Notes under the pieces: generated by a model
The model's database searches: none
Told to the model about the DNA's origin: nothing
What the model saw: only the letters and a program-made list of their open reading frames with translations
Translations under genes and position numbers: made by a program
Part shown: positions 1 to 38,897 of the stretch, piece by piece
Layout of the letters: each line of letters begins with the position of its first letter
Position numbering within the stretch: position 1 is the stretch's first letter
Virus record (IMG/VR): IMGVR_UViG_3300045146_000572
Span: 1 to 53,664 of that record
DNA from: a virus
Taxonomy: Duplodnaviria; Caudoviricetes
Direction: 5' to 3' (one strand)
DNA: 53,664 bases

Positions 1-126
1 TTTTGCTACTTTACTTCCACCTTCCAATTCGAGTAGTTCAGCGTTCAGCAGATTTAGTTCATCTTTCAAAGCTGTGGTATATTGGTTATTAGCCATATTG
101 GTCGTAAGAGCACCAAAGCCAACACC
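1..126. repeat. Terminal direct repeat, left copy (circular overlap)
   Basis: 1-126 is identical to 53516-53641; the following 23 nt diverge. Confidence 0.95.
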
Positions 127-1728
127 CGCAGAGTTACTAACGTTAGCGGTATTTTCAAGTTTCTTGTTGACTTCTTCAATTTTATCCCGCACCTCGTCAA
201 TTTTTTGCTGTTGCAAAGTAGACGATAAATTTCCAAAAGCCAAATCAGCGTCTGAGACCTTATATCCGAGTTTTTCGTAAGCATCCTTCAATGCGGATGT
301 GGTTTTTTCAAGAGCTTCCTGATTCAATCCAGTTCTCTCATAGGATGCTTTGATTATATTGTAACTTGCCTCCAAATCTTTTAAAGCAAAGTATTCGTCA
401 CCTATCGAAGTGATTGCTTCCGTCCTTTTTTGTTCCAGGACTTTAGACGCTGTATAAAGGGCGATAACTGCAGTTGTAACCGTACCGATCGCAATCGCAA
501 TCGGTGCCCATGGAGCCGTCAATAATTGAAGGCGCAGATAGCTCAGTCCTTGAAATGCTTTTACAGAAACAGCAAGGGCTCCAAGTGCGACAGTCATCTT
601 GGTGATTCCGGTCACTACTCCCTGGATCAATCCAGGATATTGGTTAAGCAGATAAAAAACTTTCTTCATCTGCGAATTGACTTCGGTGCCTATGCTTATA
701 AAAGCACCTGTCACAATATTCTTAAATATCTGTGATTGCTTGCCCAGGCCATCCATCTGCAATCCAAAAGCCCGCTCTGTCATTCCCATTGATGAATACA
801 TCGCAGCAGTCTTTTCTGCAAGGTCATCCGAGAGATGGCCTGTTAAAGCATAAAATGCGACAATGCCTTCTTTCCTGCCTAACAGGTCTCCAATAGACAT
901 TTCGTATTTATTAGTATAATCTGCCATTGCCTGCAAAGCCCCCTGGAGACCGCCTACTTTTTGGATAAAATCTTTTCCGCTTCCGACACCAAGTTCGTCA
1001 AAAAATCTTCCCATCTCATCTTTGGTTTTAATGAACGCAGTCATCAAAGATTCCATTTGAGTCGTAACTTCAGCAGTATTGCCGGTCACACCTGTCAAAG
1101 TTGCTAAAACGCCGGCAACCTCTTCAAATCTAATACCCAGAGCCGATGCAAGCGGAATTGTTTTACCAAGTTCAGTAGACAATTCCGCCATTGTGGTTTG
1201 ACCCAACTTTATGGTCTGAAAAGTTATGTCTGAAATTCGCCCGACTTCCTCCCATTCATACCCATACCCTTTTATGACGGCGCTGAAAAAGTTGAACGTC
1301 TCCGTTGTATCCGCGACCCCTGCGGATGCACCTTTTGCTGACGCTTCAAGCATCATCAGCGATTTCTCGACTGGAACTGTTGCGGATACAACTTGATACA
1401 AGGCATCGCTCAAAGCAACAGCAGTATTGGGCAACGTATATGAAAGTTCAAGCGTCTCGGCTTTTAATCTCTCAAACGCCGGCATTGCCTCATCATCGAC
1501 GAGAGTCGAAACATTTCTCATTATACTGCCGAATTCAGCTGCAGCAGTTGAAACAGCGTACAGAGCAGCCCCTGCAGCAGCGAAGGCCATGTTGAGAGCG
1601 AGATTCATCCTCGAAGCGGATTTGTCTGTTTCCGCGCTTGCCTTCTCTAAATCATTGGTGAACTTCTCGGTTCCGGTAATTCCGATGGTTGCTTCAATGT
1701 CATATTTTCCGCTTCCCCAGATGTTCAT
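1..1728 (-). CDS. Tail tape measure protein, N-terminal part (TP901-family core); runs off the left edge and joins 50636-53664
   Basis: Not in ORF track. Manual translation from ATG 1728: MNIWGSGKYDIEATIGITG...LSDALYQVVSA...FQTIKLGQTTMAELS...GVTGNTAEVTTQMESL. In frame with MANNQ at 94-96 (=53609-53611); joined length about 1535 aa. Confidence 0.92.
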   Translation of the reverse strand, partial: MNIWGSGKYDIEATIGITGTEKFTNDLEKASAETDKSASRMNLALNMAFAAAGAALYAVSTAAAEFGSIMRNVSTLVDDEAMPAFERLKAETLELSYTLPNTAVALSDALYQVVSATVPVEKSLMMLEASAKGASAGVADTTETFNFFSAVIKGYGYEWEEVGRISDITFQTIKLGQTTMAELSTELGKTIPLASALGIRFEEVAGVLATLTGVTGNTAEVTTQMESLMTAFIKTKDEMGRFFDELGVGSGKDFIQKVGGLQGALQAMADYTNKYEMSIGDLLGRKEGIVAFYALTGHLSDDLAEKTAAMYSSMGMTERAFGLQMDGLGKQSQIFKNIVTGAFISIGTEVNSQMKKVFYLLNQYPGLIQGVVTGITKMTVALGALAVSVKAFQGLSYLRLQLLTAPWAPIAIAIGTVTTAVIALYTASKVLEQKRTEAITSIGDEYFALKDLEASYNIIKASYERTGLNQEALEKTTSALKDAYEKLGYKVSDADLAFGNLSSTLQQQKIDEVRDKIEEVNKKLENTANVSNSAGVGFGALTTNMANNQYTTALKDELNLLNAELLELEGGSKVAK

Positions 1729-2060
1729 CCTACCACCTTGTAAGGTTTGAATTTTCCATTCTCATAAACCTGCTCTGTCTTTACTGTTTTTTTCCTTTTT
1801 TTGGTTAGAATCGATTTCGGCTTCCCTTTAAAATTTGCGCTTTGGAACAATCTAATGAAAATATCAAAAGCCCTCAAAATGTCATTTGTTTCCGGTTCAA
1901 TTATTTCTTCCTCTATACTGGTCAGCAGCAGTTCCCTACGAATCGGGTCATTTGAATCCATGATTAACTGAGGGCTAAATGGGCTTTCATACCTATAATG
2001 TTTGTATAACAGCAGCCGAGTTTCCCATTCTTCAAAAGAACGGGACTCGATCAGTTTTTT
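1725..2060 (-). CDS. Tail assembly chaperone frameshift extension (gpT-like)
   Basis: Lies in the -1 frame after the slippery A AAA AAC at 2054-2060; sits between chaperone and tape measure. Confidence 0.75.
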   Translation of the reverse strand, partial: KKLIESRSFEEWETRLLLYKHYRYESPFSPQLIMDSNDPIRRELLLTSIEEEIIEPETNDILRAFDIFIRLFQSANFKGKPKSILTKKRKKTVKTEQVYENGKFKPYKVVG

Positions 2061-2581
2061 GCTGTTTTTGTAATACTGGCAACAATCTGAGCAAGTTGAA
2101 CATACTGATCCGCGCATAAACGCAGCAATTCAAGATTCGATCCCATTAGTTCGCTGAACATTTTCTGTTCTTCCTCTGTCGGGAACAGCTTTTCACCTGT
2201 TTCAGGATCTGTCAGAAATTTTGGAATAATGTTAAGGACGACGATCTGCCTGGTTAAATCATAGGCAATATGTTCCGCCAGATTTTTCGGCTTTTCCTTT
2301 TCCAGGGTCGCCTTGACTTCCTTCGTTGCGTTCTCAAGGTCTGCCTCCCATTTCGCTTCATTCATCGGAAGTTTGTCCAGCCCTTTTTCAATGGTCTTTG
2401 CAAGTTTTTCATGGAATACAAGGATTCGCTCTTCCTGAATCGAATAAATATCAGGAGACGACAACCTTGCCCTGACGGAATCCGTATCGCTTATCGGAAT
2501 CTCAAAATCGACGAAAACTTTTCTGTAACGATCAGCCGATTGGATGATATCAATTTTGCGGATTTTGGTTTTTTGACTCAT
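2051..2581 (-). CDS. Tail assembly chaperone (gpG-like)
   Basis: Position between major tail and tape measure; ends GCA AAA AAC TGA. Confidence 0.75.
   Translation of the reverse strand: MSQKTKIRKIDIIQSADRYRKVFVDFEIPISDTDSVRARLSSPDIYSIQEERILVFHEKLAKTIEKGLDKLPMNEAKWEADLENATKEVKATLEKEKPKNLAEHIAYDLTRQIVVLNIIPKFLTDPETGEKLFPTEEEQKMFSELMGSNLELLRLCADQYVQLAQIVASITKTAKN
2054..2060 (-). promoter_or_regulatory. Programmed -1 frameshift slippery heptamer AAAAAAC
   Basis: X XXY YYZ immediately before the chaperone stop; -1 frame stays open to 1725. Confidence 0.8.
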
Positions 2582-2849
2582 TAATTAATTCCTTATTTTT
2601 TTCGATTATTTTAAAAACTTGGTTTTTTAAGCGTCTGAGTGTGAGCCCATATGCAATGGGCTCGACACTCATCTCGCGTGAATTTAAGGTCATAACCACA
2701 TTTTCGTCAACATCGAATTTCATTTTTGCCTTTGGTGTTTTCTGGTCTCCAATGAGCTCCTCTGTCAGGAAAATGCATTTCGGTTCAATGTGGCAGCTGG
2801 TCATAACAGCTGCAGCCCTTAAAAAATCGTCCGTTGTGTACTCAATCAT
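2550..2849 (-). CDS. Hypothetical protein (DUF5659-like small phage protein)
   Basis: YTTDDFLRAAA N-terminus resembles that family; GAGGTG RBS. Confidence 0.5.
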   Translation of the reverse strand: MIEYTTDDFLRAAAVMTSCHIEPKCIFLTEELIGDQKTPKAKMKFDVDENVVMTLNSREMSVEPIAYGLTLRRLKNQVFKIIEKNKELINESKNQNPQN

Positions 2850-2857
2850 TAATCACC

Positions 2858-3649
2858 TCAGGCGGTTGCTTTGGCGTAAGTGACGGTCACGATTGTTCCC
2901 GCTGCAGGAGTCGGCGTTAAAGTGAATGTCGTTCCAACGCATGTCGCTCCGCTGGTCACCCTGGAACCGTAGACCTGAGCCGTTGTCTTGGTGATGCATG
3001 AAACGACATTATTCAGCAGGAAGTCCTCATTTTCCTCGTTGGTCACATCAAAGAGAATAACAGGGGTCGAGGACAACGTGAATGAACCGCTGCTCCCATT
3101 CGCAGTGAACCGATCAATGACAAGCTCTGCACCTGCATAGATTCGGAACGGATCGCGCTTCGACCAGAAAGTGAAAGTTGAAGGATTATCCTCCATTGGA
3201 GTATTTTCTTCCCATTCCTTCAAAATCATCTGCGGATATACTTTCGTATACTTGTGGGTTCCATCGCTTTCGCGCATTTCCGTTTCCCAGGTGATGATCG
3301 GAATCGACTTTGCCCTGGTCGCCTGGCCGTAATAACCTGCACCTCCAAAAGTGGTTCCGTACAGTTGAGCCATGAACGCGAACAATTTTCCGGCAAGGAT
3401 GTCAACAGCCAATTCGTGTTTCCACTGGCTTTTGACTTCCGTATATTCATCTCCCGCACCTTCCTGAAAAACGTTTTTTGTCGAACCAGCCGTAAGAGGC
3501 GTCGGAGTCGCGTTTTGGATGCCTTCAACATAGGCAGGGGTCAAAGGCGCCGCGACCGAAGCACCAAGTCGCCAAATGCGATGCAATGAGTTTTTACCCA
3601 TAAGAACATCGTCCTCAGATGGGGCTTCGAGCCATGATGTGTAGTCCAT
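2858..3649 (-). CDS. Major tail tube protein with C-terminal beta-rich extension
   Basis: Synteny, size, Thr/Gly-rich composition, GGAG RBS. Confidence 0.7.
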   Translation of the reverse strand: MDYTSWLEAPSEDDVLMGKNSLHRIWRLGASVAAPLTPAYVEGIQNATPTPLTAGSTKNVFQEGAGDEYTEVKSQWKHELAVDILAGKLFAFMAQLYGTTFGGAGYYGQATRAKSIPIITWETEMRESDGTHKYTKVYPQMILKEWEENTPMEDNPSTFTFWSKRDPFRIYAGAELVIDRFTANGSSGSFTLSSTPVILFDVTNEENEDFLLNNVVSCITKTTAQVYGSRVTSGATCVGTTFTLTPTPAAGTIVTVTYAKATA

Positions 3650-3661
3650 AAAAAATCTCCT

Positions 3662-4147
3662 CTAAATGATTAAATCTGCGCTCATCTCCGTGCGGAAATC
3701 CATCGCACTCGGATCGCTCAGGTCTTGCATGTTGCTTATTTTATCAATCGCAATCCCGAAATATTTTAATGTTTTATTTGTGTACGTATCCGTCCCCAGG
3801 GTCACAGTGAACTGGCTGGTATAAACTGTCGGACTTGTCAGCAGCAGGTTATTAAGCTCTGAACAGATTATAGAGTTCTCCGCTTTACCACCTGTTTTTT
3901 CATCATTCCATATCCCAATATCAACTCGCCACCGTCCTTTATGATTTGAAGAGCCCTGGGCAAGGATGGCAGCTTCAATATAAAATGGAGGCTGGATATA
4001 TATAATCGGACGATTAAGTTCTTCACCTTGCTCTATGTTCGGAAACGACTTTAGAATATCGTATCCGCTCCATGGTGAACCGAGTGACTTTAAAAAGGCC
4101 ACAAGGATCGCCTGAGTGTCGTTCATTATCCGCTGGTTTCTTATCAT
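3662..4147 (-). CDS. Tail terminator/completion protein
   Basis: Synteny; RPIIYI and FRTEM beta-strand pattern. Confidence 0.55.
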   Translation of the reverse strand: MIRNQRIMNDTQAILVAFLKSLGSPWSGYDILKSFPNIEQGEELNRPIIYIQPPFYIEAAILAQGSSNHKGRWRVDIGIWNDEKTGGKAENSIICSELNNLLLTSPTVYTSQFTVTLGTDTYTNKTLKYFGIAIDKISNMQDLSDPSAMDFRTEMSADLII

Positions 4148-4557
4148 CCTTTTGAACCTGCATAATCACGAATCCTCTTTTTTAAAGAGGACTTCCAGAG
4201 CTTTATGACGTTTTCCTTATGCACTTTGAATGCACTTGCGAAAAAGTCGCGTTTCATTAATTTTCGCGTTCCATACTGCACGAATACAGCATAGGGAGCT
4301 GAATCCTTGTCCATATAAATGTGCTTTATATATTTCGATTCTCTTTTCTCCCGCAATGCTCCGTAAAGCCGACCGCTGACCTTGCGGACAGGGAGCCTCC
4401 CTTTTCTGTATACGGTTCCACGAAGATTCGCTTTTATTTGATTCGCGACAGTAAAGCTCCCCAGGGTAACCATTGCAGCCATGTCCTTGGGATAATACTC
4501 GCGTATCTTCCGAATCTTTTTTTTCCAATTATCAATATTAACTTGTCGCTTGCTCAC
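4144..4557 (-). CDS. HK97 gp10-like neck/tail completion protein
   Basis: PVRKVSGRLY...APYAVFVQYGTRKLMKRDFF motif. Confidence 0.8.
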   Translation of the reverse strand: MSKRQVNIDNWKKKIRKIREYYPKDMAAMVTLGSFTVANQIKANLRGTVYRKGRLPVRKVSGRLYGALREKRESKYIKHIYMDKDSAPYAVFVQYGTRKLMKRDFFASAFKVHKENVIKLWKSSLKKRIRDYAGSKG

Positions 4558-5021
4558 AGTTTTCTCAACAGCGTCAAATAATACTTTTCATTACCTGCAG
4601 CCATAGGCACCACAGAAATCAATTTAAATTGATCATCGTCAACCTGCAGGTATGCACTCAAATCATTTTCCCAATCTTCCATCGAGGGAACTTCATTGGT
4701 TGCTCCGTCAAGAGCACAAATCGCCGCGAAATCATTCGCTTCGGCTTTGCCTATTTCCAACCATTTTTTGACCGTATCAAGGGTCGCCAGTGACGTGATG
4801 CTCCCGATGAATATTTTCATGTTGCGCTGCACAGAAACCGATGAAATAACAAGGTTTCCATTGCAATTCTCAGCAGACGGATTAAGGCGATGCCATTCCG
4901 GTGAATAACTCGGATTATCTGGATCTTCATATAAACGACAAGGGCATGACGTTCCGACCGAATAATTCAGAACGGAGTCCATGCCCCTGGTTGCCAGTTG
5001 CCTCAATAATCTTTCAATCAT
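4554..5021 (-). CDS. Head closure/head-tail joining protein
   Basis: Synteny only; CPC motif. Confidence 0.45.
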   Translation of the reverse strand: MIERLLRQLATRGMDSVLNYSVGTSCPCRLYEDPDNPSYSPEWHRLNPSAENCNGNLVISSVSVQRNMKIFIGSITSLATLDTVKKWLEIGKAEANDFAAICALDGATNEVPSMEDWENDLSAYLQVDDDQFKLISVVPMAAGNEKYYLTLLRKL

Positions 5022-5491
5022 GGAAACAAGTCCCAGACGCTCAGATTGTTGTCTGACCAGTTTATATTCCGATTGTCGAGTCCGTCAGGAATATAATCAT
5101 CGCCTCCGCTGGTAGACCCTCCGACCGCATAATTTTTGATTCCGCACAGACCGAGGAGCTCCTGCAGTTCTTTTGCAAGTTTGTCAAGTATCGTCGCCCT
5201 GTCTTGCGCGTCAATCGGAGTAAAGCTCACGATTCCACTTTTGACCGCCTCATTCGGTGCCTCCGTCAAAACAACAAGGCAGCAGGTCACAATTTCGGCG
5301 CCTATCAAGAGAGTCTGTTGTGTGGCCGTGAGACCCGAAAACGTCAGACTGTTGTTCGTCAGCCATTGGTCTATTTTCGCCTCTGCAAGAGGAATATAGG
5401 ATGGGGAATACAAGTCCCCATCCGATAGAGTCACTGACGGAATAGTCCGGAGCCTCCTCCGGACGTTGTCCGCTGTTATTCTATAGCTCAC
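5018..5491 (-). CDS. Head-tail adaptor
   Basis: Synteny; ITADNVRRRL N-terminus typical of gp6/gp15-like adaptors. Confidence 0.55.
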   Translation of the reverse strand: MSYRITADNVRRRLRTIPSVTLSDGDLYSPSYIPLAEAKIDQWLTNNSLTFSGLTATQQTLLIGAEIVTCCLVVLTEAPNEAVKSGIVSFTPIDAQDRATILDKLAKELQELLGLCGIKNYAVGGSTSGGDDYIPDGLDNRNINWSDNNLSVWDLFP

Positions 5492-5898
5492 TGAGGTTTC
5501 TTCCCTTTGCTGCCTGCAGGTTTCTTGGGAGCCGGCCGTTCAGCCGGTTCCTTTTTTGTTCTGCGGAAATTCGGAAGGATCGGGACGACGATTTGCCTCC
5601 CATCAAGAGCATCAAGCCCCCCCATCGCAATCAGACGATTCTTTTCGGCTTTGATTTTTTCGACTTCACCCTCGCGTTCCGAAATGTACTTTTCAAGGGT
5701 ATCGACCGCAGCCTGGTCGTCATGCAATTGCGTGAGCGGATTGTCAGGTTTCTCCTCAGTTCGCAGGTACGCAGCAAAAAACGAATTCGCTTCGCATTCC
5801 TGCGGAATCTCCTTATCTACCATCTCGCGACTGAAATCCAGCCGTTCGTTGGTATAAGGATTCTGAATGTGTAATACTTTCGAACTAATGACCCACAT
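5488..5898 (-). CDS. Hypothetical protein
   Basis: ORF with AGGAG RBS directly after the capsid gene. Confidence 0.6.
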   Translation of the reverse strand: MWVISSKVLHIQNPYTNERLDFSREMVDKEIPQECEANSFFAAYLRTEEKPDNPLTQLHDDQAAVDTLEKYISEREGEVEKIKAEKNRLIAMGGLDALDGRQIVVPILPNFRRTKKEPAERPAPKKPAGSKGKKPQ

Positions 5899-5925
5899 CG
5901 TTTTCTCCTGTCGTTTTATCGTGAA

Positions 5926-7056
5926 TTAATGAGTTTCGTCAAACAGGGTGATGGCCTGGTTATCGTCCACCGTGAACGTGTCGCGATGGCTGACCGCCGT
6001 GCCATTGATCTGTTTACGGATGATCTTGTCTGTTTCCACCATGATTCCGCCGTTCGTCAGATGGGTCATCGCATAATCGGAATCAAAGCCGACAAAGTTA
6101 TCGGCACCGATGACATCACGATCCCATTCATATGCGACCGGCAGTGAAATCCCGCTTGCCTGGAATTGCACCTGCGGATTCGCCATGCCTGCGATGGTCG
6201 TGGCGTATTCCTGCAGCAGAGCCTTGCGACCGACAAAAACTTTCGTCTTGTACGGACTCGGTGATCCGGTTGCCCACTTTATGACGTCACCCACCGCAAT
6301 GGTTCCGCTGGCAGCCGTTTCGACTGTGGTTCCAGGAGTATTTGAATTTCCATCGCCATTCTGAGCAATGTAAAGCAGGCGGTCAGTTCTGCGGAGGTCG
6401 ATCTGCTGGCCGACTCGACGCAGGAACGTTGCGAAGAAATTTAAATACTGCATTGCAAGGGCTTCGTAAGTGACTGAGATGTAACGACCGAATTTCGTCA
6501 GATAAACAGTATGCTCACCGATGACGATTTTGGTCTCACCCATTTGCTCACCCTGGCCGATCTCACCGAGGTCACGATCCGCCTCAGTATCTTCCAGATA
6601 GGGCTTCTGGTAAGACAGGGCATTGATGTCTATCTGTTCGGTCACAAGGTACGGAACCAGCGAGTTCAACATCATGCCGGCATAAATTCGGTCTCCGACC
6701 CATGCCGGAAAAACAACATCAATGCCGGCATATTCGTAAACCTTGTTGACTTTTGCAGCCCTGGCGCCGCTCACAGGAATGCCGGCGTATTTAAAACATT
6801 CATCAACAGCAGTGAGGGGGACTTGCTTGCCCTGCTCCCGCAGTCGCTTCTTCTCGAAGAAAACTTCGCTGGCCGTCATTCCGAAATACGGAGATTCGGT
6901 GCCTGTTTTCTCTGACTTGATTTTTTCAAGTTGCATCTGAAAAGTCATACCATCCTCTTTTCCTGATGCATACATCCCTTCCTCAAGCGAGACCCCTTTT
7001 AACCAGAAGTCAGGTTTGTTAAGAGGGTTTTCGCGCGGAACAAAAATCTCTGGCAT
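5926..7056 (-). CDS. Major capsid protein (HK97 fold)
   Basis: EIGQGEQMGETKI...LTKFGRYISVTYEAL motif; synteny; GGAGG RBS. Confidence 0.88.
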   Translation of the reverse strand: MPEIFVPRENPLNKPDFWLKGVSLEEGMYASGKEDGMTFQMQLEKIKSEKTGTESPYFGMTASEVFFEKKRLREQGKQVPLTAVDECFKYAGIPVSGARAAKVNKVYEYAGIDVVFPAWVGDRIYAGMMLNSLVPYLVTEQIDINALSYQKPYLEDTEADRDLGEIGQGEQMGETKIVIGEHTVYLTKFGRYISVTYEALAMQYLNFFATFLRRVGQQIDLRRTDRLLYIAQNGDGNSNTPGTTVETAASGTIAVGDVIKWATGSPSPYKTKVFVGRKALLQEYATTIAGMANPQVQFQASGISLPVAYEWDRDVIGADNFVGFDSDYAMTHLTNGGIMVETDKIIRKQINGTAVSHRDTFTVDDNQAITLFDETH

Positions 7057-7110
7057 ATGATGCCTCCATTATAATCAATTAAAAATTCAAGTTGTTTACA
7101 GCCGTCAGGT

Positions 7111-7563
7111 TTACAACAGCATGTCCAGTCGACCGGATGACGGAACATCGATTCCAATGACGTAACCGATGCCCGATGCATCTCCATAGATAGGACGATA
7201 GGTTGCACCATAAACAAGACCGCCATTTCCACGTGACGGTGAACCGCTGTATTCGAAATTCACGACCCTGGTCGCCGGATGAAAATCTCCGCCTCCGTCC
7301 TCAAAGCCCCAGATTTCGCAGGTGAGTTTGTAGGACGTTGCAGTTTTCTCTTTCCACAGGATTCGACCGTGCGGTTTCTCGCCATTTGCAGGAGTGACCG
7401 CCTGGTAGTTGGCACCGGTTCCAAGTCGAATGAGTTTTCCTTCAACTTTGGTGCCTAAAGCAATTAAAGCATCAATGGCCGTTTTCAGACCTGAATCAGG
7501 GGTCAGCGTCAACGTCAGCTGTTCGCCTTTTTGACCTCCACCCACTGTCGGTAAAGTAGACAT
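7111..7563 (-). CDS. Putative capsid decoration/cement protein
   Basis: 150-aa Gly-rich beta protein between protease and capsid genes. Confidence 0.55.
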   Translation of the reverse strand: MSTLPTVGGGQKGEQLTLTLTPDSGLKTAIDALIALGTKVEGKLIRLGTGANYQAVTPANGEKPHGRILWKEKTATSYKLTCEIWGFEDGGGDFHPATRVVNFEYSGSPSRGNGGLVYGATYRPIYGDASGIGYVIGIDVPSSGRLDMLL

Positions 7564-7577
7564 AAGAATCTCCTTCT

Positions 7578-8948
7578 CTAATCAGAAATAAATGATCTGT
7601 CATGGAAATTCGGCAAAGCAGGTTTCTCCGGTTTCGGCTCAAAAGAGATGGCTCCCTTTTTCCCCTTTAGAGATCTGTGTTTTTCCGTTAGCTCTGCAGG
7701 GGTCAGAACCATAAGCTCAGCCCTCTTGCCATCGGCTTCATCCCACTTCATTTGCCCTGCCTGAAAAGTATTCTGCAGGATCATCTCCACGACCTCAGAT
7801 TTCAGCGAATCTTTTTCCGCCTCTATCTGTTTGATTTTTTCGTCCAATTGGTTATTCTCTGCAGTCATGGCAGCAAGGTCATCCTCGGCCTTTGCCTTTG
7901 CATTTTCAGCTTCGACCTTTTGGGTTTCGAGTGACTGGTTCAAAGTTTTCACCTGCTCCAGTTCCTGCACCTTGCTTTCAACAGCAGCAATGAATTCAGC
8001 ATTTTCGCCGTCAGCCTGCAGGGTAAATTCACCAATGGACATTTTCAAATTAATCGGCATTTCACTTTCCTCCTCGCAACCGGAATTTTCATCGGTTACG
8101 TTGTAGAATTTGCTGGACGCTCCATATTGCGCTCCGAGAAAAACATGGCTCCCCTCAAGGGCTTCCGCCTCTTGGTTTTCGGAATTGCGATATTCTCTCC
8201 ACAGTAGTTCGCCGGATTTTTCGTCTTTCACGTCAACAAGCAAGGGATAACGAAATCCGATACTCATCGGACTTGTCACTCCTGCCTTCATCCTGGTAAT
8301 AGCATCAGAATCGATGACGTGCATATAGAATTTCGGAGCGAACCAATATAGACCGCCTTCGATGTCAAGAATTCTTTTTAAGTGGTTTATGAATTTTTTG
8401 TAAGGTACAAATCCAAGAGTTTCGCTGAACTCTTGTGGATCATCGTATTTCAGCAACCTGGAATCAAAAAATCGACCTTCACCGGTATTAAACCAGTTAT
8501 GATTGTTCAGCTTTGATTTTCCGACAATCGACTTGGTGAAGCTCTGCAGGACTCCAAGTGACAAACGTTCTGCATCCCGATCCATAACGTTGTTCGCCAA
8601 TCTGGTATCGATTGCCACGAAATCGCTTTTCTGGAAAGCGTTAGGGTCAGGAATTATTTTCAGCATCTTTGCCCATTCTTCATCGGACGGTTCGAATGCC
8701 TTTATGTTCGCCTGGTAGCTTTTAACGACATTTCTCATATTTTTTGCATCCTCAAATTTTATCAGCCATTCCGCACATTCTGATGGGGCTTTAAAAACTG
8801 TTTTTCCATCCATCACATTGTCTGGGTCGTTTGTTGGAAACCTTATTCCCCGCTCCTCAAAAATTATCCCGAAAAATTCCCCCTCCACCCCTGTTGAATT
8901 GCGGAAAGTAAAGAACCGCCTGGACTCATTTGTCAAAGTCGGAATCAT
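7578..8948 (-). CDS. Prohead protease fused to coiled-coil scaffold
   Basis: MDRDAERLS, NNHNW (His), SPMSIGF (Ser), EALEGSHV (Glu) motifs; acidic coiled-coil C-terminus; start uncertain. Confidence 0.75.
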   Translation of the reverse strand: MIPTLTNESRRFFTFRNSTGVEGEFFGIIFEERGIRFPTNDPDNVMDGKTVFKAPSECAEWLIKFEDAKNMRNVVKSYQANIKAFEPSDEEWAKMLKIIPDPNAFQKSDFVAIDTRLANNVMDRDAERLSLGVLQSFTKSIVGKSKLNNHNWFNTGEGRFFDSRLLKYDDPQEFSETLGFVPYKKFINHLKRILDIEGGLYWFAPKFYMHVIDSDAITRMKAGVTSPMSIGFRYPLLVDVKDEKSGELLWREYRNSENQEAEALEGSHVFLGAQYGASSKFYNVTDENSGCEEESEMPINLKMSIGEFTLQADGENAEFIAAVESKVQELEQVKTLNQSLETQKVEAENAKAKAEDDLAAMTAENNQLDEKIKQIEAEKDSLKSEVVEMILQNTFQAGQMKWDEADGKRAELMVLTPAELTEKHRSLKGKKGAISFEPKPEKPALPNFHDRSFISD

Positions 8949-9183
8949 CTTCTGTCTCTACCTTTTCAAACTCACCGACTTTATCGTCGATCGGTATGGT
9001 GTTTCGCATTCTTCGGGCAGCCGGCGGAATCGGTTTGGTCTGCAGCAAAGGTTTCACAGATTCACCGAAATTTACATCATGGAATCTTTTTGGTTGCGCT
9101 GCACAGATGCACCCTGGGTCTGTACCTTTGCGAGTCCATGTTCTTGTTCTTTTGCAATGCGGACAAGTTGCCATTGTTTCCAT
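8926..9183 (-). CDS. Small Zn-finger hypothetical protein
   Basis: CPHC...CIC; GGAG RBS. Confidence 0.5.
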   Translation of the reverse strand: METMATCPHCKRTRTWTRKGTDPGCICAAQPKRFHDVNFGESVKPLLQTKPIPPAARRMRNTIPIDDKVGEFEKVETEDDSDFDK

Positions 9184-9184
9184 T

Positions 9185-10066
9185 TTAATTTACTCCGAGA
9201 TTGTTTCGTAGGCAATTAACAAATCCAATAAAATCTTGCATGGTGTTCATATAATAAAATCCCATGTTTTCCGTATAAGGCATCCATTTCTTATTGACGA
9301 ATCCCCAGCTTACAATGTTTCCACCTGCAGCCCCTGCAAGATGCCCAATGCCTGAGTCTTTACATACTGTAAATTTCGAGTTTCTGCAGACACAAGCTAT
9401 TTCGTCAAGTGATAGTTTGAATCGTAAATCGTGGAGTAAATTCTTGGCGTATTGTTCTATCCCTATCGGCTCATCGTTTCCGATTAAAACAATCGGAATT
9501 TCGCTTTTATTCAAAATTTCAAACAACAGCATTGATTCGGCAGGGGTCACGTTCTTGAAATCCGCCTTTGCAACGTTGCGCAATTGCAACGCAATGTATG
9601 TCTCTGGAAGTTCAACGTCTGGTTTCTGTATTTTATCCCATTTCGGGAAAATGCCCATTTGCCTTAAAATCGTGACTTCATTTATAAGGATGTATTCATA
9701 ACAATGCGGCGCCTGGGTAAAAAGAGAGGACTTCACGCGAAGATCTGAAATAAAAAACTTTGTTATATTCTGCGGGATTGGGCTCTCCGCCTGCATAAAA
9801 ACAACCTCTTCACCAGGATTGTCCTGCAGGTATGCTCTTCGGATTGCATCAAAAACAACGACATCCCCCAGGGCTTCACCTATGTGGTAAAAAACAGTCT
9901 TGGCGCCTGGTATGTTGATTTTATACCTTTTTTTCGCAATGCATGAATGACAATCAGGGCAATAAAAGCCTTTTAGTTCATAATGACCCCAATCGTTGAT
10001 GGTGATGAAAACGGTTCGACCGCAGTCAAGGCAATCAAAATGAGTCCGTTCAACATCCTTTTCCAT
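9185..10066 (-). CDS. Glycosyltransferase family 9-like (GT-B) with N-terminal Zn ribbon
   Basis: ALGDVV and CKDSGIGHLAGAAG motifs; CLDC/CPDC. Confidence 0.8.
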   Translation of the reverse strand: MEKDVERTHFDCLDCGRTVFITINDWGHYELKGFYCPDCHSCIAKKRYKINIPGAKTVFYHIGEALGDVVVFDAIRRAYLQDNPGEEVVFMQAESPIPQNITKFFISDLRVKSSLFTQAPHCYEYILINEVTILRQMGIFPKWDKIQKPDVELPETYIALQLRNVAKADFKNVTPAESMLLFEILNKSEIPIVLIGNDEPIGIEQYAKNLLHDLRFKLSLDEIACVCRNSKFTVCKDSGIGHLAGAAGGNIVSWGFVNKKWMPYTENMGFYYMNTMQDFIGFVNCLRNNLGVN

Positions 10067-10071
10067 GCATG

Positions 10072-10100
10072 AATTTAATGCATGGTAAATTGCAAGTCAA
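10072..10100 (-). promoter_or_regulatory. Sigma70-type promoter TTGACT-17-TAAATT
   Basis: Directly upstream of the GT9/head genes; transcript may be leaderless. Confidence 0.55.
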
Positions 10101-20767: not shown

Positions 20768-21037
20768 GGTGTTTTAATCGTTTAACGATGGTGGAAAAAT
20801 GCTCCCCATCCTTTTCTATTAAAATGAATCGGCGCCTGGTATTAAGGCAAGCGACCCCTGTTGTTCCGCTGCCTGCAGCGTTATCCAGAACAATATCCCC
20901 TTGATTTGTATATGTTTTAATTAAGTATTCAAAAAGCGAAACAGGTTTTTGAGTCGGATGTATTGCATGGTGTTTCGCGTCATAACTGAGATGGCATTTC
21001 TGGCATAGTGCTCTTATTTTTTATAATCAATCGGCAT
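20748..21037 (-). pseudogene. Collapsed remnant: HNH-like protein ends joined to the C-terminus of an N4/N6 DNA methyltransferase
   Basis: MPIDYKK* then, in another frame, RALCQKCHLSYDAKHHA-IHPTQKPVSLFEYLIKTYTNQGDIVLDNAAGSGTTGVAC...HEPRLF*. Confidence 0.75.
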
Positions 21038-35606: not shown

Positions 35607-36956
35607 TCAGCCGTGCAGTTCTTTCTCAATTATAAACCTGACCACTTCGCTTGAGAATCCGTCAATGTGGGTCACGACATTTCCGTAACCGATTCCATTC
35701 CTGTAGGTGCCAACATTCATGACGTAAACTCGATCAAAGCCTTTAAATGAAACATCATCATGAGTCTGTCCATCCGTGATGACGATCAACCGCTGGTCTT
35801 TGGTCAGCAGCCCCTTTGCCTCTGCCTGGTTCATGCTCTCCATTAGATACGTTCCTGAATTTGAGTCCACTTTCCGGCGTATTGCATCGCCCAGGGAAAA
35901 TCCCTTGCGGAGCGGAATTTCGTGATATTTGTCCCCGAAAACGCCGGCAATCAAATGGTCACACAGACCGGAAAGTAAAACCGCCAAGGAAATAGCAGCG
36001 TCAACCCTTTTCATGTCAGATTTTCCGCTCATTTTCGAAAACATCGAACCGGAACCGTCAACCAGGAGAAACGTCTTGCCCTGCAGCTTAAATTCGCCGG
36101 CTGTTGCAATAGACCTGAAAAATGCATCTTCGAGAGCCTGTTCAAAGCGAGGTGCCTCTCTTGCTGCAGCAATGAATCGATACGGAGATATCCGGTCGAC
36201 CTGCATATTGTTTAAGGCATTGATGATAAATTCAGGATCGACATGAGCTTCGGCCATATTCCGCAGGTTGCGAATCAATGCAAGTCCACCAAGTTTATTT
36301 GCCTGCAACAGGCGAGTCCATTTTGTTTTTTTATCAACTCCGTCATTCGCGCTCAGAGAAACCTCCCAGGTGTCAGGAATATCCATGGAGCCTGTTTTGA
36401 TTTTGTTATAAAGCAGGCTACGCTCTTCATTTTCCGGCTTCGGGTGAGTCAGCCTCATGATATCGATCAACCGGATGTCGCGCTGGCGGTCGTACTTTGC
36501 CAGCTGGTATTCGTTGAACTTTGCAAAGGCAAGACCGATCCCTTTTTTAAGCTGTTTCGGGATCCCCTTCCGTCCGTAAACTTTCCAGTAAATCGCGACG
36601 ATTTCCATAAGTTCATCAGCCCTGGCAATTGTATCGTAAACGAATCCACTCAAAGCAAAGTTTTTCGCCTGCTCTGCCAATATGCTTAACATGAGCAGGG
36701 GAGCGTGTCTCAGATTCATTCTGTGCCTTGCATCAAAAGCAAGTTTAGCGACTTCCTTTGCTTTTCCTTCTGAAACAAGCAAAGCGATCAAGTCTTTGAT
36801 TCTGGTTGCAATCTCCTGACCGGATTCATAAAAGGTGTCCTCCCATAACAGGCAGCCCATGACAGACCGTCTCAATTGCTGCAGGTTATCAATACGGACA
36901 GCCCTTCCGCCTTCATGAGTGACGATTTTTCGATTCTGGGGAAAATTGGTTTTCAT
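35607..36956 (-). CDS. Ro60/Rsr-like TROVE + vWA RNA-binding protein
   Basis: THEGG, LRRSVMGCLLWEDTFYESG, IARADEL, FAKFNEYQLAKY, LTHPKP, TWEV.LS, ALIRNLRNM, LVDGSGSM (MIDAS), IVITDGQ, IDGFS; start at 36956 with AAGGAG RBS. Confidence 0.95.
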   Translation of the reverse strand: MKTNFPQNRKIVTHEGGRAVRIDNLQQLRRSVMGCLLWEDTFYESGQEIATRIKDLIALLVSEGKAKEVAKLAFDARHRMNLRHAPLLMLSILAEQAKNFALSGFVYDTIARADELMEIVAIYWKVYGRKGIPKQLKKGIGLAFAKFNEYQLAKYDRQRDIRLIDIMRLTHPKPENEERSLLYNKIKTGSMDIPDTWEVSLSANDGVDKKTKWTRLLQANKLGGLALIRNLRNMAEAHVDPEFIINALNNMQVDRISPYRFIAAAREAPRFEQALEDAFFRSIATAGEFKLQGKTFLLVDGSGSMFSKMSGKSDMKRVDAAISLAVLLSGLCDHLIAGVFGDKYHEIPLRKGFSLGDAIRRKVDSNSGTYLMESMNQAEAKGLLTKDQRLIVITDGQTHDDVSFKGFDRVYVMNVGTYRNGIGYGNVVTHIDGFSSEVVRFIIEKELHG

Positions 36957-37036
36957 AGTGTTTTTCTCCTTCATTAAATTAAAAAAGCCATCGGAGACTT
37001 TCCGATGGCTTCGAAAATCTCCGGTGAAATTTTATC
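36951..37036. repeat. 86-bp direct repeat, copy before Ro60 (Y-RNA 3' end + terminator + RBS + ATGAAA)
   Basis: Matches 38702-38787 with one mismatch. Confidence 0.95.
36981..37011 (-). terminator. Intrinsic terminator (duplicated copy)
   Basis: AAGCCATCGGA-AAGTC-TCCGATGGCTTTTTT. Confidence 0.85.
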
Positions 37037-37156
37037 GGTTCGCTTTAGCCGCCGCCGTGTGTAGCGGGCGATTCATCTGCTGGCGAGTTGCCAGGCAGGG
37101 GGAATTCGGATTGCATACCCACGCCAAAGGCGGTCGGCTGCAAGCGGTTGTTAGGC
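37030..37156 (-). mobile_element. Integron attC-like site 2 (R' replaced by GATAAAA)
   Basis: GCCTAAC-AACCGCTTGCAGCCGACCGCC...GGCGGCGGCTAAAGCG-AACC-G|ATAAAA. Confidence 0.8.
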
Positions 37157-37815
37157 AACGTAAAGACCGCTTCGGTTGTGCGGTAACGATTGCCATGCAT
37201 TTCAACCAGTGGGACAAAAGGCAACCAGTCGGCTTTTGTATTCTCACAGACTATGACTTCGCCCATGCGCTCGGAGCTCCATTGAGCCAGTGACGGATAA
37301 TCAATTTTGCTGTGGACATAATACTTCCCGCCTGTTTGATATGGCGGGTCAATAAACCAAGTCGCTTTTTGATTTTCAATCTCGGTGTAATCGCCCTGCC
37401 TGATTTCCCAATGGCGAATTTTCCAAAGGTTATCAGCGGCAAATTGCAACTTATAATTTTGTGTGTTCGGGCGGATTACGGTTTTCCACTTACTTGCTGT
37501 TTTCTTGGGCTGGCTTGGAGCTCCTACGATAATCATGCCTACAAACCACTTCGCTTCAATGCAATCAAAATTGTATTGGTCTGTCGTTTCACCAAACTTC
37601 AAGCGGGGCAAGCCCAGAACATCGGCGGGCGAACATTGCTGTAACCACTTCCAAACTTTGACAATCACTTCGTATTTGTCCACGAGCAAAACTTCGCGGT
37701 CAAAATACCGCAAGGCATATTGAGCCGTTCCCGCGAATGGTTCGATAACCTTCCCGAACTGCGGGGCTGGATAGTGACGAATGACTTTGCTCTTACTGCC
37801 GTAATAACTGAACAT
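37045..37815 (-). CDS. DNA adenine methyltransferase (D12/Dam-like), cassette gene
   Basis: FSYYGSK, IEPFAG, FIDPPY; ORF reads through the attC (PNNRLQPTAFG tail). Confidence 0.88.
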   Translation of the reverse strand: MFSYYGSKSKVIRHYPAPQFGKVIEPFAGTAQYALRYFDREVLLVDKYEVIVKVWKWLQQCSPADVLGLPRLKFGETTDQYNFDCIEAKWFVGMIIVGAPSQPKKTASKWKTVIRPNTQNYKLQFAADNLWKIRHWEIRQGDYTEIENQKATWFIDPPYQTGGKYYVHSKIDYPSLAQWSSERMGEVIVCENTKADWLPFVPLVEMHGNRYRTTEAVFTLPNNRLQPTAFGVGMQSEFPLPGNSPADESPATHGGG

Positions 37816-37825
37816 AATTTTAGCA

Positions 37826-37955
37826 ACCTAACGGTTCGCTTTACCTGCGCGGGGCGGGTGTAGTACCCTGCTCGGCGGGAGTAAAACCTTCGAGTGTAGA
37901 TTGACTCGGTTGGCGGGGAGAATCCCCCGCGTCCATGTGCAAGCGGTTGTTAGAA
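37826..37955 (-). mobile_element. Integron attC-like site 1
   Basis: TTCTAAC-AACCGCTTGCACATGGACGCGGGG...CCCCGCGCAGGTAAAGCG-AACC-GTTAGGT, 130 bp. Confidence 0.85.
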
Positions 37956-38707
37956 GGCGTAAAGAGCGGCTGTTGTGCAAGACGTTTGACCGTCAACTCA
38001 CAATATTTTTCAGAGACTTCTATGCCTATCGCCTTTCTGCCTGATAACCTTGCGGCTACAAGGCTCGTACCTGTTCCCGCAAACGGGTCAAACACGGTTT
38101 CATTTTCTGCACTCCATCCAGTAATTGCTCGTTGTGCCAAGTGAAGCGGGAATGTTGCGCCATGACCTTCTGTATTATCGCCGCGTTTCATGCGCCAAAT
38201 ATCTGGCATTTCACCACGCGGAAAATAAGACTTTGAAAATGCTCTACCTGCTGACGCTTCTTTCTCGAAAATCAGAATCAATTCAGCCGCCTTGTTTATA
38301 ACTGCGTTGTGCATGGCTGGCTGACCATGACCTTTATCCCAAACGATTACATCCTTTAGTTCTCGCGCAAACTGACCAATGATTTTGAAAACGGCTTCCT
38401 TGCTACCTGTGACAATTTGAATGTTCCAAAATACAAGCCCTGAAATTCTCATCATTTCGCGGAGGGCGTGACTGTGAAATTCAAAATATTCGTCAATTGA
38501 TAAATCATCGCCAAAGTGCGCGTACTTCTTACTGAAATGCTCGGAGTTCTCGCGGGTTGTGTACTCGCCGTTTCTTATGCGGGTTCGCATGTTATACGGT
38601 GGTGAAGTGACCGTGAGGCTACACAGATTATCAGGCAGTTCCGCCATGACATCGCGGCAATCGCCATTGTAAATTGTGACGCCATCCTGCTGGTAATAAG
38701 GTTTCAT
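37841..38707 (-). CDS. N4-C/N6-A DNA methyltransferase (beta class), cassette gene
   Basis: VTSPPYN, HGATFP, VFDPFAGTGT, GIEVSEKYC; reads through the attC (SNNRLHMDAG tail). Confidence 0.92.
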   Translation of the reverse strand: MKPYYQQDGVTIYNGDCRDVMAELPDNLCSLTVTSPPYNMRTRIRNGEYTTRENSEHFSKKYAHFGDDLSIDEYFEFHSHALREMMRISGLVFWNIQIVTGSKEAVFKIIGQFARELKDVIVWDKGHGQPAMHNAVINKAAELILIFEKEASAGRAFSKSYFPRGEMPDIWRMKRGDNTEGHGATFPLHLAQRAITGWSAENETVFDPFAGTGTSLVAARLSGRKAIGIEVSEKYCELTVKRLAQQPLFTPSNNRLHMDAGDSPRQPSQSTLEGFTPAEQGTTPAPRR

Positions 38708-38787
38708 CGTGTTTTTCTCCTTCATTAAATTAAAAAAGCCATCGGAGACTTTCCGATGGCTTCGAAAATCTCCGGTGAAATTTTATC
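38702..38787. repeat. 86-bp direct repeat, copy before MTase
   Basis: Matches 36951-37036. Confidence 0.95.
38732..38762 (-). terminator. Intrinsic terminator after the Y RNA array
   Basis: AAGCCATCGGA-AAGTC-TCCGATGGCTTTTTT. Confidence 0.85.
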
Positions 38788-38897
38788 ATCGGTTTAAGCG
38801 CTCTAACCACTGAGCTATCAGATTCTAAGAACTGAGGTGGATTCGAACCACCGACCGCTCGATATTGAGTCGAAGTAACCGATAAAGACGCACCGGA
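38771..38897 (-). ncRNA. yrlA: YrlA-type Y RNA with permuted tRNA-like domain
   Basis: Terminal stem TCCGGTG/CACCGGA; ATCGGTT/AACCGAT; T arm GGTGG-TTCGAAT-CCACC precedes a loop-closed acceptor TCAG/CTGA and D arm GCTC-AGTGGTTA-GAGC; adjacent to Ro60. Confidence 0.9.

Follow-up and report, generated by a model that had tools for sequence, protein, structure and literature searches.

Positions 37036-38707 (minus strand) of the window, the whole 53,664-nucleotide stretch of viral DNA that we analysed, very probably are a two-cassette CALIN (a cluster of attC sites without an integrase) that a tailed phage of lake water obtained from a pool of phage-borne integron cassettes, with the history and function set out below. 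The block holds two orphan DNA methyltransferase genes on the same strand, each tailed by an attC-type hairpin of about 121-130 nt. The preliminary description had proposed such attC-tailed cassettes in a phage without an integrase, and this proposal is borne out by one-strand arrays of the same attC family in 20 other phage contigs.

The methyltransferase cassettes and their attC sites

The downstream gene, M1 (37045-37815, minus strand; 256 aa), encodes a Dam-like orphan DNA adenine methyltransferase of the D12 class that carries a DPPY motif (22.6 bits to the Pfam D12-class family, cut-off 22). The upstream gene, M2 (37841-38707, minus strand; 288 aa, counted from the ATG downstream of a ribosome-binding site), encodes an orphan N6/N4 DNA methyltransferase of the beta class; it carries an SPPY motif and matches Pfam N6_N4_Mtase at 106.6 bits over residues 31-240 only. 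Both reading frames continue through their attC, as had been noted, and end at a TAA in its L' part; attC1 encodes the last ~37 residues of M1 and attC2 the last ~40 of M2. From crossover G to crossover G the M1 cassette occupies 37036-37831 (minus strand; 796 bp), which lies within the spacing seen across the attC family (229-3075 nt, median 595 nt).

The two attC sites, 796 nt apart, are the only ones in the window, and no intI was found in its 53.6 kb, as the preliminary description had stated, nor a gene for any other tyrosine recombinase; the contig is 68% complete by CheckV. A complete integron would have intI and attI beside the array; here the neighbours are a Y RNA on one side and a TROVE gene on the other. 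A tRNA scan returned no tRNA. The GC content is 46-47% in the bodies of M1 and M2, 47% in the neighbouring TROVE gene, 59-63% in the attCs, and 43.6% in the whole window; among the parts of the block, only the attCs depart from the window. A foreign origin had also been read from the lack of CTGCAG in the block. The motif is indeed absent there and frequent elsewhere (91 sites in the window versus 8.9 expected from dinucleotide shuffles), but the CTGCAG-free interval of 2167 nt is only the fourth largest of 92 and the probability of finding no site in 1751 nt is ~0.05, so its absence is not significant and says little about foreign origin.

Full attC architecture had been claimed at both cassette ends, and we found it at one. 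The upstream site, attC2 (37826-37955, minus strand; 130 nt; R' 37826-37832, R'' 37949-37955; 115.3 bits to our covariance model R1), is complete, with its crossover point between 37832 and 37831 and its recombinogenic bottom strand on the plus strand of the window. The downstream site, attC1 (37036-37156, minus strand; R'' 37150-37156; 101 bits to R1), ends at the crossover G 37036, where phage DNA stands directly in place of the R' box GTTAGGT. Thus the core sites RYYYAAC (R'') and GTTRRRY (R', cut between G and TT) are both present in attC2, and only R'' in attC1. The extrahelical bases on the plus strand of the window are T37134 and C37141 in attC1 and T37932 and C37940 in attC2. End motifs common to the 3' parts of M1 and M2 recur ~796-799 nt apart (D4 at 37033 and 37829, D2 at 37139 and 37938), with ~90 nt between D4 and D2 that are not conserved between the two sites; the 53.6 kb contain exactly two copies of the 15-base right-end motif. 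The pair had been considered as repeats of a diversity-generating retroelement, a candidate dropped because the middles of the two elements are unrelated.

R1 finds these two sites only, also with filters off. Both were in its 18-sequence training set; support independent of the model comes from their 75-85% identity to elements of other contigs (attC2 is 84% identical to an element in L024, and attC1 matches the attC adjoining intI in L025 at 85% identity across 122 nt). Folding of the single sequences is weak evidence here, with DNA z-scores of –2.65 on the plus and –3.60 on the minus strand for site 1, and of –0.91 and –0.96 for site 2. Rfam searches in both gathering and E-value modes returned nothing on the attC elements.

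An attC family behind phage-encoded integrases

An exact 16-mer scan yielded 30 loci. We ran R1 on all 31 sources and counted sites on 21 of these, namely the window and 20 other IMG/VR phage contigs, which together have 63 sites with E ≤ 1e-3 and as many as 10 copies on one strand in L006, 8 in L022, and 6 each in L027 and L011. The elements are 86-132 nt long, within the published attC range of 57-141 nt (PMC5371416, in which attC sites are defined by EHBs, UCS, and VTS), and their middle parts split into subtypes.

The pairing of the basal stem holds in 94.2% of cells, compared with 81.8% in shuffles (0/500) and 27-44% when the arms are slid, and 8 of the 15 basal pairs show changes on both sides, indicating that the L''/L' pairing is held by structure and not by sequence. 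Extrahelical bases are correctly placed, on the L'' arm of the bottom strand, as the preliminary description had anticipated. A T is bulged in 51 of the 58 distinct elements, and the following six pairs match in 42-57 of 58 with this T bulged versus 2-30 of 58 without; because the complementarity of the helix depends on it, the bulge is required. Six nucleotides nearer the L box than the bulged T lies an unpaired C that is invariant (63/63). The spacer between R and L is unpaired: on the bottom strand it comprises 4 nt in the 5' arm and 2-3 nt in the 3' arm, and the possible contacts are G-T at most, never Watson-Crick. In basal stem, spacer, and bulges attC2 matches the rest of the family. 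As a control, the best R1 match in a class 1 integron region begins 1 nt past the aadA1 coding sequence on the bottom strand (E 0.0043), and four further matches abut cassette 3' ends.

Reading frames run through the element at 42 of the 63 sites and stop in R'' at 9. A conserved protein C-terminal domain was dropped as an explanation, since the same DNA element follows unrelated reading frames and stops fall in R'' at those nine sites; tails lying outside the methyltransferase fold and the covarying stems also oppose it. DNA methyltransferase families scored above cut-off for 16 of the 28 cassette reading frames tested and come from at least three Pfam families, or four if the D12-class M1 of the window is included.

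The family is associated with integron integrases in phage genomes. Two of the 20 other records carry a match to TIGR02249 (396 bits, cut-off 265), and the phage IntI can be aligned over its full length to IntI4 of V. cholerae (PDB 2A3V, E 8.7e-75), on contigs that also encode tape-measure, head, and tail proteins. An attI-like conserved block directly follows the intI stop codon, and arrays of the family stand directly downstream of full-length intI and attI, all in the same direction. The same layout is found in the GenBank entry Virus Rctr41k (KX853513.1; 6 sites) and in two further IMG/VR contigs, L046 and L048. The integrase of KX853513.1 is annotated only as xerD. L046 and L047 share 9011 bp at 99.92% identity and then carry unrelated arrays, with the divergence starting right after the GTT of the attI core site. 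The remaining 18 records have no integron integrase, and two of them are complete genomes that have terminal repeats. The attCs of this family appear to be serviced by the integron integrases of other freshwater and wastewater phages. These data agree with the earlier suggestion that the cassettes came from another cassette-bearing element: genuine integron integrases stand directly upstream of arrays of the family, near-identical phage backbones carry different arrays from the attI core onward, and, as described below, the cassettes of the window occur in lake metagenomes without the flanks of this phage.

Proposed insertion into a Y RNA-Ro module

A Y-RNA gene and its Ro/TROVE gene stand on either side of the array. 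The YrlA-like Y RNA (38766-38876, minus strand) matches Rfam RF02553 at 40.7 bits (E 5.7e-7), which is below the gathering score of 69, and the TROVE/Ro60-like gene (35607-36956, minus strand) matches Pfam TROVE at 47.7 bits. An 85-bp direct repeat, with only two copies in the window, brackets the array: the left copy (36952-37036) is the leader of the TROVE gene and the right copy (38703-38787) is the leader of M2, and each holds the Y RNA 3' end, a hairpin, a ribosome-binding site, and first codons. The block is inserted into an ancestral Y RNA-Ro module, marked by the Y RNA.

The two junctions differ in kind. At attC1 the G is followed by AT, exactly at the canonical cut, and we infer a fit to the GWT consensus reported for attG sites in a preprint (10.1101/2022.09.11.507474). 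The upstream junction falls at a start-codon microhomology and is not of the integrase type; in L022 and in contigs of lake run X5, unlike in the window, M2 is preceded by an attC R'. Because simple cassette insertion yields no 85-bp duplication, at least one non-integrase event is needed.

In the sequence of events that we propose, the M1-M2 pair would have come to this phage from the phage-integron pool. The downstream end would have arisen when attC1 was cut at its canonical point, in the manner of an integrase, and joined to a GWT-type secondary (attG-like) site in the 3' end of the Y-RNA gene, which would explain why attC1 lacks R'. Another crossover, this one illegitimate and located at the start codon, would have put M2 behind a duplicated Ro-gene leader and thereby produced the direct repeat.

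It is possible, though clearly less probable, that these are real integron cassettes brought without an integrase, by homologous or illegitimate recombination with an integron-bearing phage, so that the canonical cut is a coincidence and the array a fossil. The repeat around the block, the microhomology at a start codon where relatives have R', the varying pairings of genes and attC subtypes between contigs, and the lack of an integrase in the window would all fit such an arrival. However, the downstream junction comes immediately after the crossover G, reads GWT, and needs no indel, whereas a nearby 4-nt microhomology junction would need a 3-nt deletion, and near-identical phages do swap arrays at the core site.

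Metagenome data bear on whether the block is a single molecule. In lake runs X3 and X5, contigs that lack the flanks of this phage match M1 and M2 at ~99-100% identity, and X2, an independent sample, has the flanks and both genes at 100% identity. We consider it improbable that the block is an assembly chimera, in which the high-copy attC arms would have drawn together M2-attC2-M1, or the joins to the 85-bp repeat, from different molecules. Word depth is 41-526 in the attC arms versus 4-35 in the genes, the contigs of all four lake runs break inside the attCs and at the repeat, and the X2 contig with M1 runs upstream into 29 letters unlike the window, all as a chimera would predict. Against it, the repeat is specific to this phage (two copies, containing the Y-RNA 3' end), and therefore both its junctions exist in molecules of this phage; X2 matches flanks and genes perfectly, and a chimera would leave the identity of the elements unchanged. 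Among the contigs of the four independent lake runs, none bridges the junctions and none shows the block in excised or empty form; uncovered parts carry no weight there. Short joints, among them 37148->37830 in one contig (side 29), cannot be relied on.

That the elements are a phage-specific structured repeat (acting, for instance, as a terminator, as an RNA element, or as the target of a different recombinase) and not integron sites is highly improbable: the lack of Rfam matches, the absence of integrase from most carrier contigs, and the frequent read-through would suit it, but the elements adjoin integron integrases and attI, array divergence begins at the core site, their R/L boxes, spacer, and two bulges are canonical, and R1 recovers class 1 attC sites.

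The preliminary description held that the phage could shed or shuffle the cassettes. The site attC2 is intact. For the M1 cassette, shedding or shuffling is doubtful because attC1 has lost R', which probably makes it a poor recombination partner. A more obvious route than cassette shedding is recombination between the 85-bp repeats, through which the whole block would be lost most easily. Homologous exchange within the conserved attC arms would also move genes of the M1 and M2 type, because their homologues carry other attC subtypes: M1 has 88% DNA identity to L003 4168-4879 and M2 87% to L022 7387-8152, each tailed there by a subtype that differs from that in the window.

The block had no blastn match among INPHARED phages or PLSDB plasmids, and a search of viral contigs with the TROVE protein and its 551-aa neighbour found no close phage relatives, so an empty site could not be demonstrated. 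A scan of genome contigs with M2 found only two alphaproteobacterial MAG loci (44% identity), which lack the attC-encoded tail.

Relation to known phage and chromosomal integrons

Phage CALINs with five methyltransferase cassettes, including N6_N4_Mtase, were published in 2023 with a proposed role in anti-restriction, in a report that describes 17 CALIN phages and the recombination of phage attCs by IntI1 (Qi et al. 2023, PMC9892861). The CALIN of the window is thus of a kind already known, and like those it has at least two attC-tailed cassettes in the same direction in a phage without intI. In contrast to the CALINs as described in that report, the window has a different attC family (121-131 nt, branched), one site that ends at its crossover point, and an array that lies within a Y RNA-Ro module and is accompanied by an 85-bp duplication; the tie of its family to phage-encoded integrases goes undescribed in that report's account of virulent phages. 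Rctr41k-like records may be among its 17 phages.

The CALIN of the window thereby points to a larger, undescribed family of phage-borne integrons. We lean, with some reserve, toward the view that tailed phages of freshwater and wastewater own a dedicated integron (co-directional intI, attI, and attCs of 86-132 nt) whose methyltransferase-dominated pool is an active, exchangeable anti-restriction toolkit, and that the window is an offshoot, its cassettes having been inserted by the integrase into an unrelated phage, at a non-att GWT site, while the two phages infected one cell. The pool's cargo, mostly predicted DNA methyltransferases, would modify phage DNA and blunt host restriction, and the integron would let phages exchange methylation specificities. 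The window's cassettes indicate that integron cassettes in phages are not stray bacterial fragments: they belong to a methyltransferase-rich pool that phages themselves appear to shuffle, and this pool would offer a concrete, testable route by which phages alter their methylation repertoire and escape restriction-modification.

Sedentary chromosomal integrons offer a second comparison. As described for the V. cholerae repeats (PMC5371416), their attCs exceed 120 nt with a complex variable terminal structure, similarity within the family is high, and arrays hold many cassettes; the family here shares these features but resides on phage genomes, in short arrays (2-10 sites) with intI in the same direction as the cassettes. 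The attC1 junction resembles attC × attG insertion as reported in the preprint of Loot et al. (10.1101/2022.09.11.507474), in which a cassette end likewise meets non-att DNA at GWT and at the canonical cut, with expression from a resident promoter; in the window, however, the target is a phage genome and one of the two junctions to be expected is missing, its place being taken by a start-codon fusion with the 85-bp duplication. The locus would exemplify the insertion of cassettes into viral DNA away from att sites. In "inverted" integrons, such as those of Treponema, the integrase gene is co-directional with the array. The related phage integrons likewise run intI, attI, and cassettes in one direction.

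A family of attC elements behind phage genes

The window is a linear IMG/VR viral contig of 53,664 bp (CheckV completeness 68%) that encodes a portal, large terminase, major head, and tape-measure protein and carries most of its big ORFs on the minus strand. Among these are the adjacent genes M1 (37045–37815, minus strand), a D12-class adenine methyltransferase barely over the Pfam cut-off, and M2 (37841–38707, minus strand), an N6_N4_Mtase. Because the Pfam domain of M2 ends at residue 240 of 288 and its matches to solved methyltransferases end at or before residue 270, the final ~40 residues of each protein lie outside the enzyme fold. These C-terminal tails are encoded by attC1 (37036–37156) and attC2 (37826–37955), which have conserved ends of 13–16 nt in common and ~90-nt middles that are not shared. 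As the preliminary description held, both ORFs read through their attC, stopping at a TAA in the distal arm. The R'' of the M1 cassette, which it calls complementary to the R' at the cassette's start, pairs with that R' at six of seven positions. The hexamer CTGCAG is absent from the block, as was also noted, but this absence is unremarkable; CTGCAG is the fourth commonest hexamer of the window (43.6% GC), and with 91 sites where dinucleotide shuffles predict 8.9 it is about ten times over-represented.

Scanning IMG/VR with one 16-base end motif gave 30 loci, about the number that we estimate a 16-mer would find by chance; 18 of them contain a complete two-ended element. Eighteen elements, including both window elements, were used to train a covariance model (R1). 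Across the full set of 31 sources, R1 found 76 sites at E ≤ 1; at E ≤ 1e-3 it found 63 sites in 21 of the 31, namely the window and 20 loci. The remaining 10 loci hold only fragments round the 16-mer. The window holds exactly two R1 sites, even with filters off. Elsewhere the sites form one-strand arrays (10 sites in the phage locus L006, eight in L022, six each in L027 and L011, and four in L030) with a median spacing of 595 nt (range 229–3075, n = 42). At 42 of the 63 sites the longest ORF ending there reads through the attC and stops 12–20 nt before its end, which adds a low-complexity tail of ~35–40 residues to unrelated proteins; at nine sites the ORF stops in R''. As a control we ran R1 on a class 1 integron region from a P1 phage, where the best match was a 60-nt bottom-strand site beginning one base past the aadA1 CDS, and four more matches abutted the 3' ends of the dfr, aadA, aadA2, and cmlA1 cassettes. 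In locus L003, a short attC of classical size (4857–4915, ~58 nt) lies upstream of an M1 homologue, behind another N6_N4-like methyltransferase gene. R1 missed this element, and its counts for the family are therefore too low for short sites.

Single-sequence folds on their own were unconvincing (attC2 z-score −0.9). Pairing and bulged bases in the 63-site alignment fit an attC. In the basal helices 94.2% of cells are paired, compared with 81.8% in column shuffles (none of 500 reached the observed value) and 27–44% with slid partners, and eight of the 15 basal pairs show double-sided changes. The R and L helices are separated by an asymmetric stretch (4 versus 2–3 nt) in which no Watson–Crick pairing is possible. 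Above the L helix, in the 3' arm of the window's plus strand, an unpaired C is invariant (63/63), and 51 of the 58 distinct elements have a T six nt beyond it. Bulging this T lets the six positions that follow pair in 42–57 of the 58, against 2–30 without the bulge, and the bulged-T helix has many compensatory variants. Relative to the genes, the window's plus strand is the bottom strand, as expected for attC. Folded attC bottom strands are described as imperfect hairpins, 57–141 nt long and hardly conserved in sequence, in which some bases are extrahelical, the central spacer is unpaired, and the terminal structure varies (PMC5371416); the phage elements match the definition as published there.

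Integron integrases and cassette cargo

The preliminary description reported no integrase. None is present in the contig, but about one third of the genome is absent from it. We searched 20 viral records that contain the attC family with TIGR02249, a search that fires on any tyrosine recombinase in 14 of 14 control genomes. Eighteen records, among them two complete genomes with terminal repeats, gave no match to TIGR02249, and two, G017 (94% complete) and G019, gave a full-length match (396 bits versus a cut-off of 265). The alignment of the G017 integrase with Vibrio cholerae IntI4 (PDB 2A3V, E 8.7e-75) runs from one end to the other and takes in the integron-specific insertion. The Atlas clusters nearest to the G017 integrase are integron integrases. 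G017 and G019 each carry tail and head genes, and in both a conserved block closing in a core site lies at most about 20 nt behind intI, followed by cassettes of the attC family that all point in the same direction as intI.

This intI-attI-cassette layout also occurs in loci L046 and L048, and again in GenBank KX853513.1 (Virus Rctr41k) at 4680–10100, with six attC sites, two annotated methyltransferase-like genes, and an integrase annotated as xerD ('xerD integrase-like protein') that shares 68.5% identity with the phage IntI. A complete integron lies unrecognized in the deposited Virus Rctr41k genome. L046 (1–9011) and L047, the G017 locus (1–9007), share 99.92% identity across the 9011 bp that lead up to attI; past it lie unrelated arrays, with divergence in the alignment directly after the GTT of the core site. 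Integrase-mediated cassette exchange is expected to leave just such a footprint. Positions 8998–10306 of L046 also match L006 499–1807 at 100% over 1309 bp, part of the 10-site L006 array.

Sixteen of 28 cassette ORFs (13 loci) score above cut-off for DNA-methyltransferase Pfam families (10 N6_N4_Mtase, four C-5 DNA_methylase, and two MT-A70); one encodes an AAA_33 kinase-like protein and 11 have no match or only a weak one. In the G017 array beside intI, the first two genes are N6_N4_Mtase and a third ORF has a DPPY motif without a Pfam match. A screen of 10,705 NCBI phage genomes by Qi et al. 2023 yielded three complete integrons, one In0 element, and 17 CALINs, included five methyltransferase cassettes, and found five of six phage attCs to be recombined by IntI1 (PMC9892861). 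The kind is thus already known, and the window adds one more case. In the literature searched we found no description of a phage-borne co-directional integron family with methyltransferase-dominated arrays, and no mention of Rctr41k either there or in the main text of Qi et al. 2023 (PMC9892861), whose supplements may overlap with our set.

Insertion of the block beside a Ro gene

A near-perfect 85-bp direct repeat (36952–37036 and 38703–38787, spacing 1751 nt) brackets the block. To its left lies a TROVE/Ro60-like gene (35607–36956, minus strand) and to its right a YrlA-like Y RNA (38766–38876, minus strand; Rfam RF02553, 40.7 bits, E 5.7e-7, below the gathering score), the two forming a phage-borne Ro-Y RNA module; just upstream of the Y RNA sits a 21-nt repeat (38871 and 38941). 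Since the right repeat copy overlaps the Y RNA 3' end and the left copy is the leader of the Ro gene, the Y RNA was ancestrally followed by a hairpin, a ribosome-binding site, and the Ro gene. Y RNA and Ro gene are now separated by the methyltransferase block and a second leader copy.

At the downstream junction, attC1 ends exactly at the crossover G (37036) and is followed by AT from the phage, with zero indel required, whereas a junction at the nearby 4-nt microhomology would require a 3-nt deletion; genomic attG sites of consensus GWT are reported cassette insertion targets of integron integrases (10.1101/2022.09.11.507474). The upstream junction is not of integrase type. There M2 is joined at its start codon to the duplicated leader, whereas the L022 and metagenome run X5 versions of the gene have an attC R' a few bases ahead of the ATG. 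The two junctions suggest that the block arose by one integrase-type event and one illegitimate crossover, with a purely recombinational origin as a serious rival. Lacking R', attC1 cannot form its R helix, and excision of M1 on its own is doubtful; loss of the whole 1751-bp unit through the repeats is plausible. Among the viral contigs searched we found no close relatives of the window phage, and so no empty site.

The cassettes in metagenome contigs

The stretch, or part of it, occurs in 24 runs (18 lake-water, five wastewater, and one sludge), and the 12 with a share of at least 0.20 are lake water without exception. We compared Logan contigs, rather than reads, of four runs with the window. 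Run X2 has the flanks, M1, and M2 at 100% identity. Runs X3 and X5 have M1 and M2 at ~99–100%, and the phage flanks 35552–36471 and beyond 38864 were not found in their contigs. Logan contigs end inside attCs, word depth is 41–526 in the attC arms versus 4–35 in the genes, and other genes are joined behind conserved attC arms. These contigs show that the M1 and M2 cassettes exist in other contexts, evidence that covers the genes and not the window's own junctions. Elsewhere in the window, 20769–20963 (minus strand) encodes what is left of an N6_N4-type methyltransferase, 65 C-terminal residues (motif I region); this remnant lacks the N-terminal half and an attC and lies directly ahead of the next gene's ATG.
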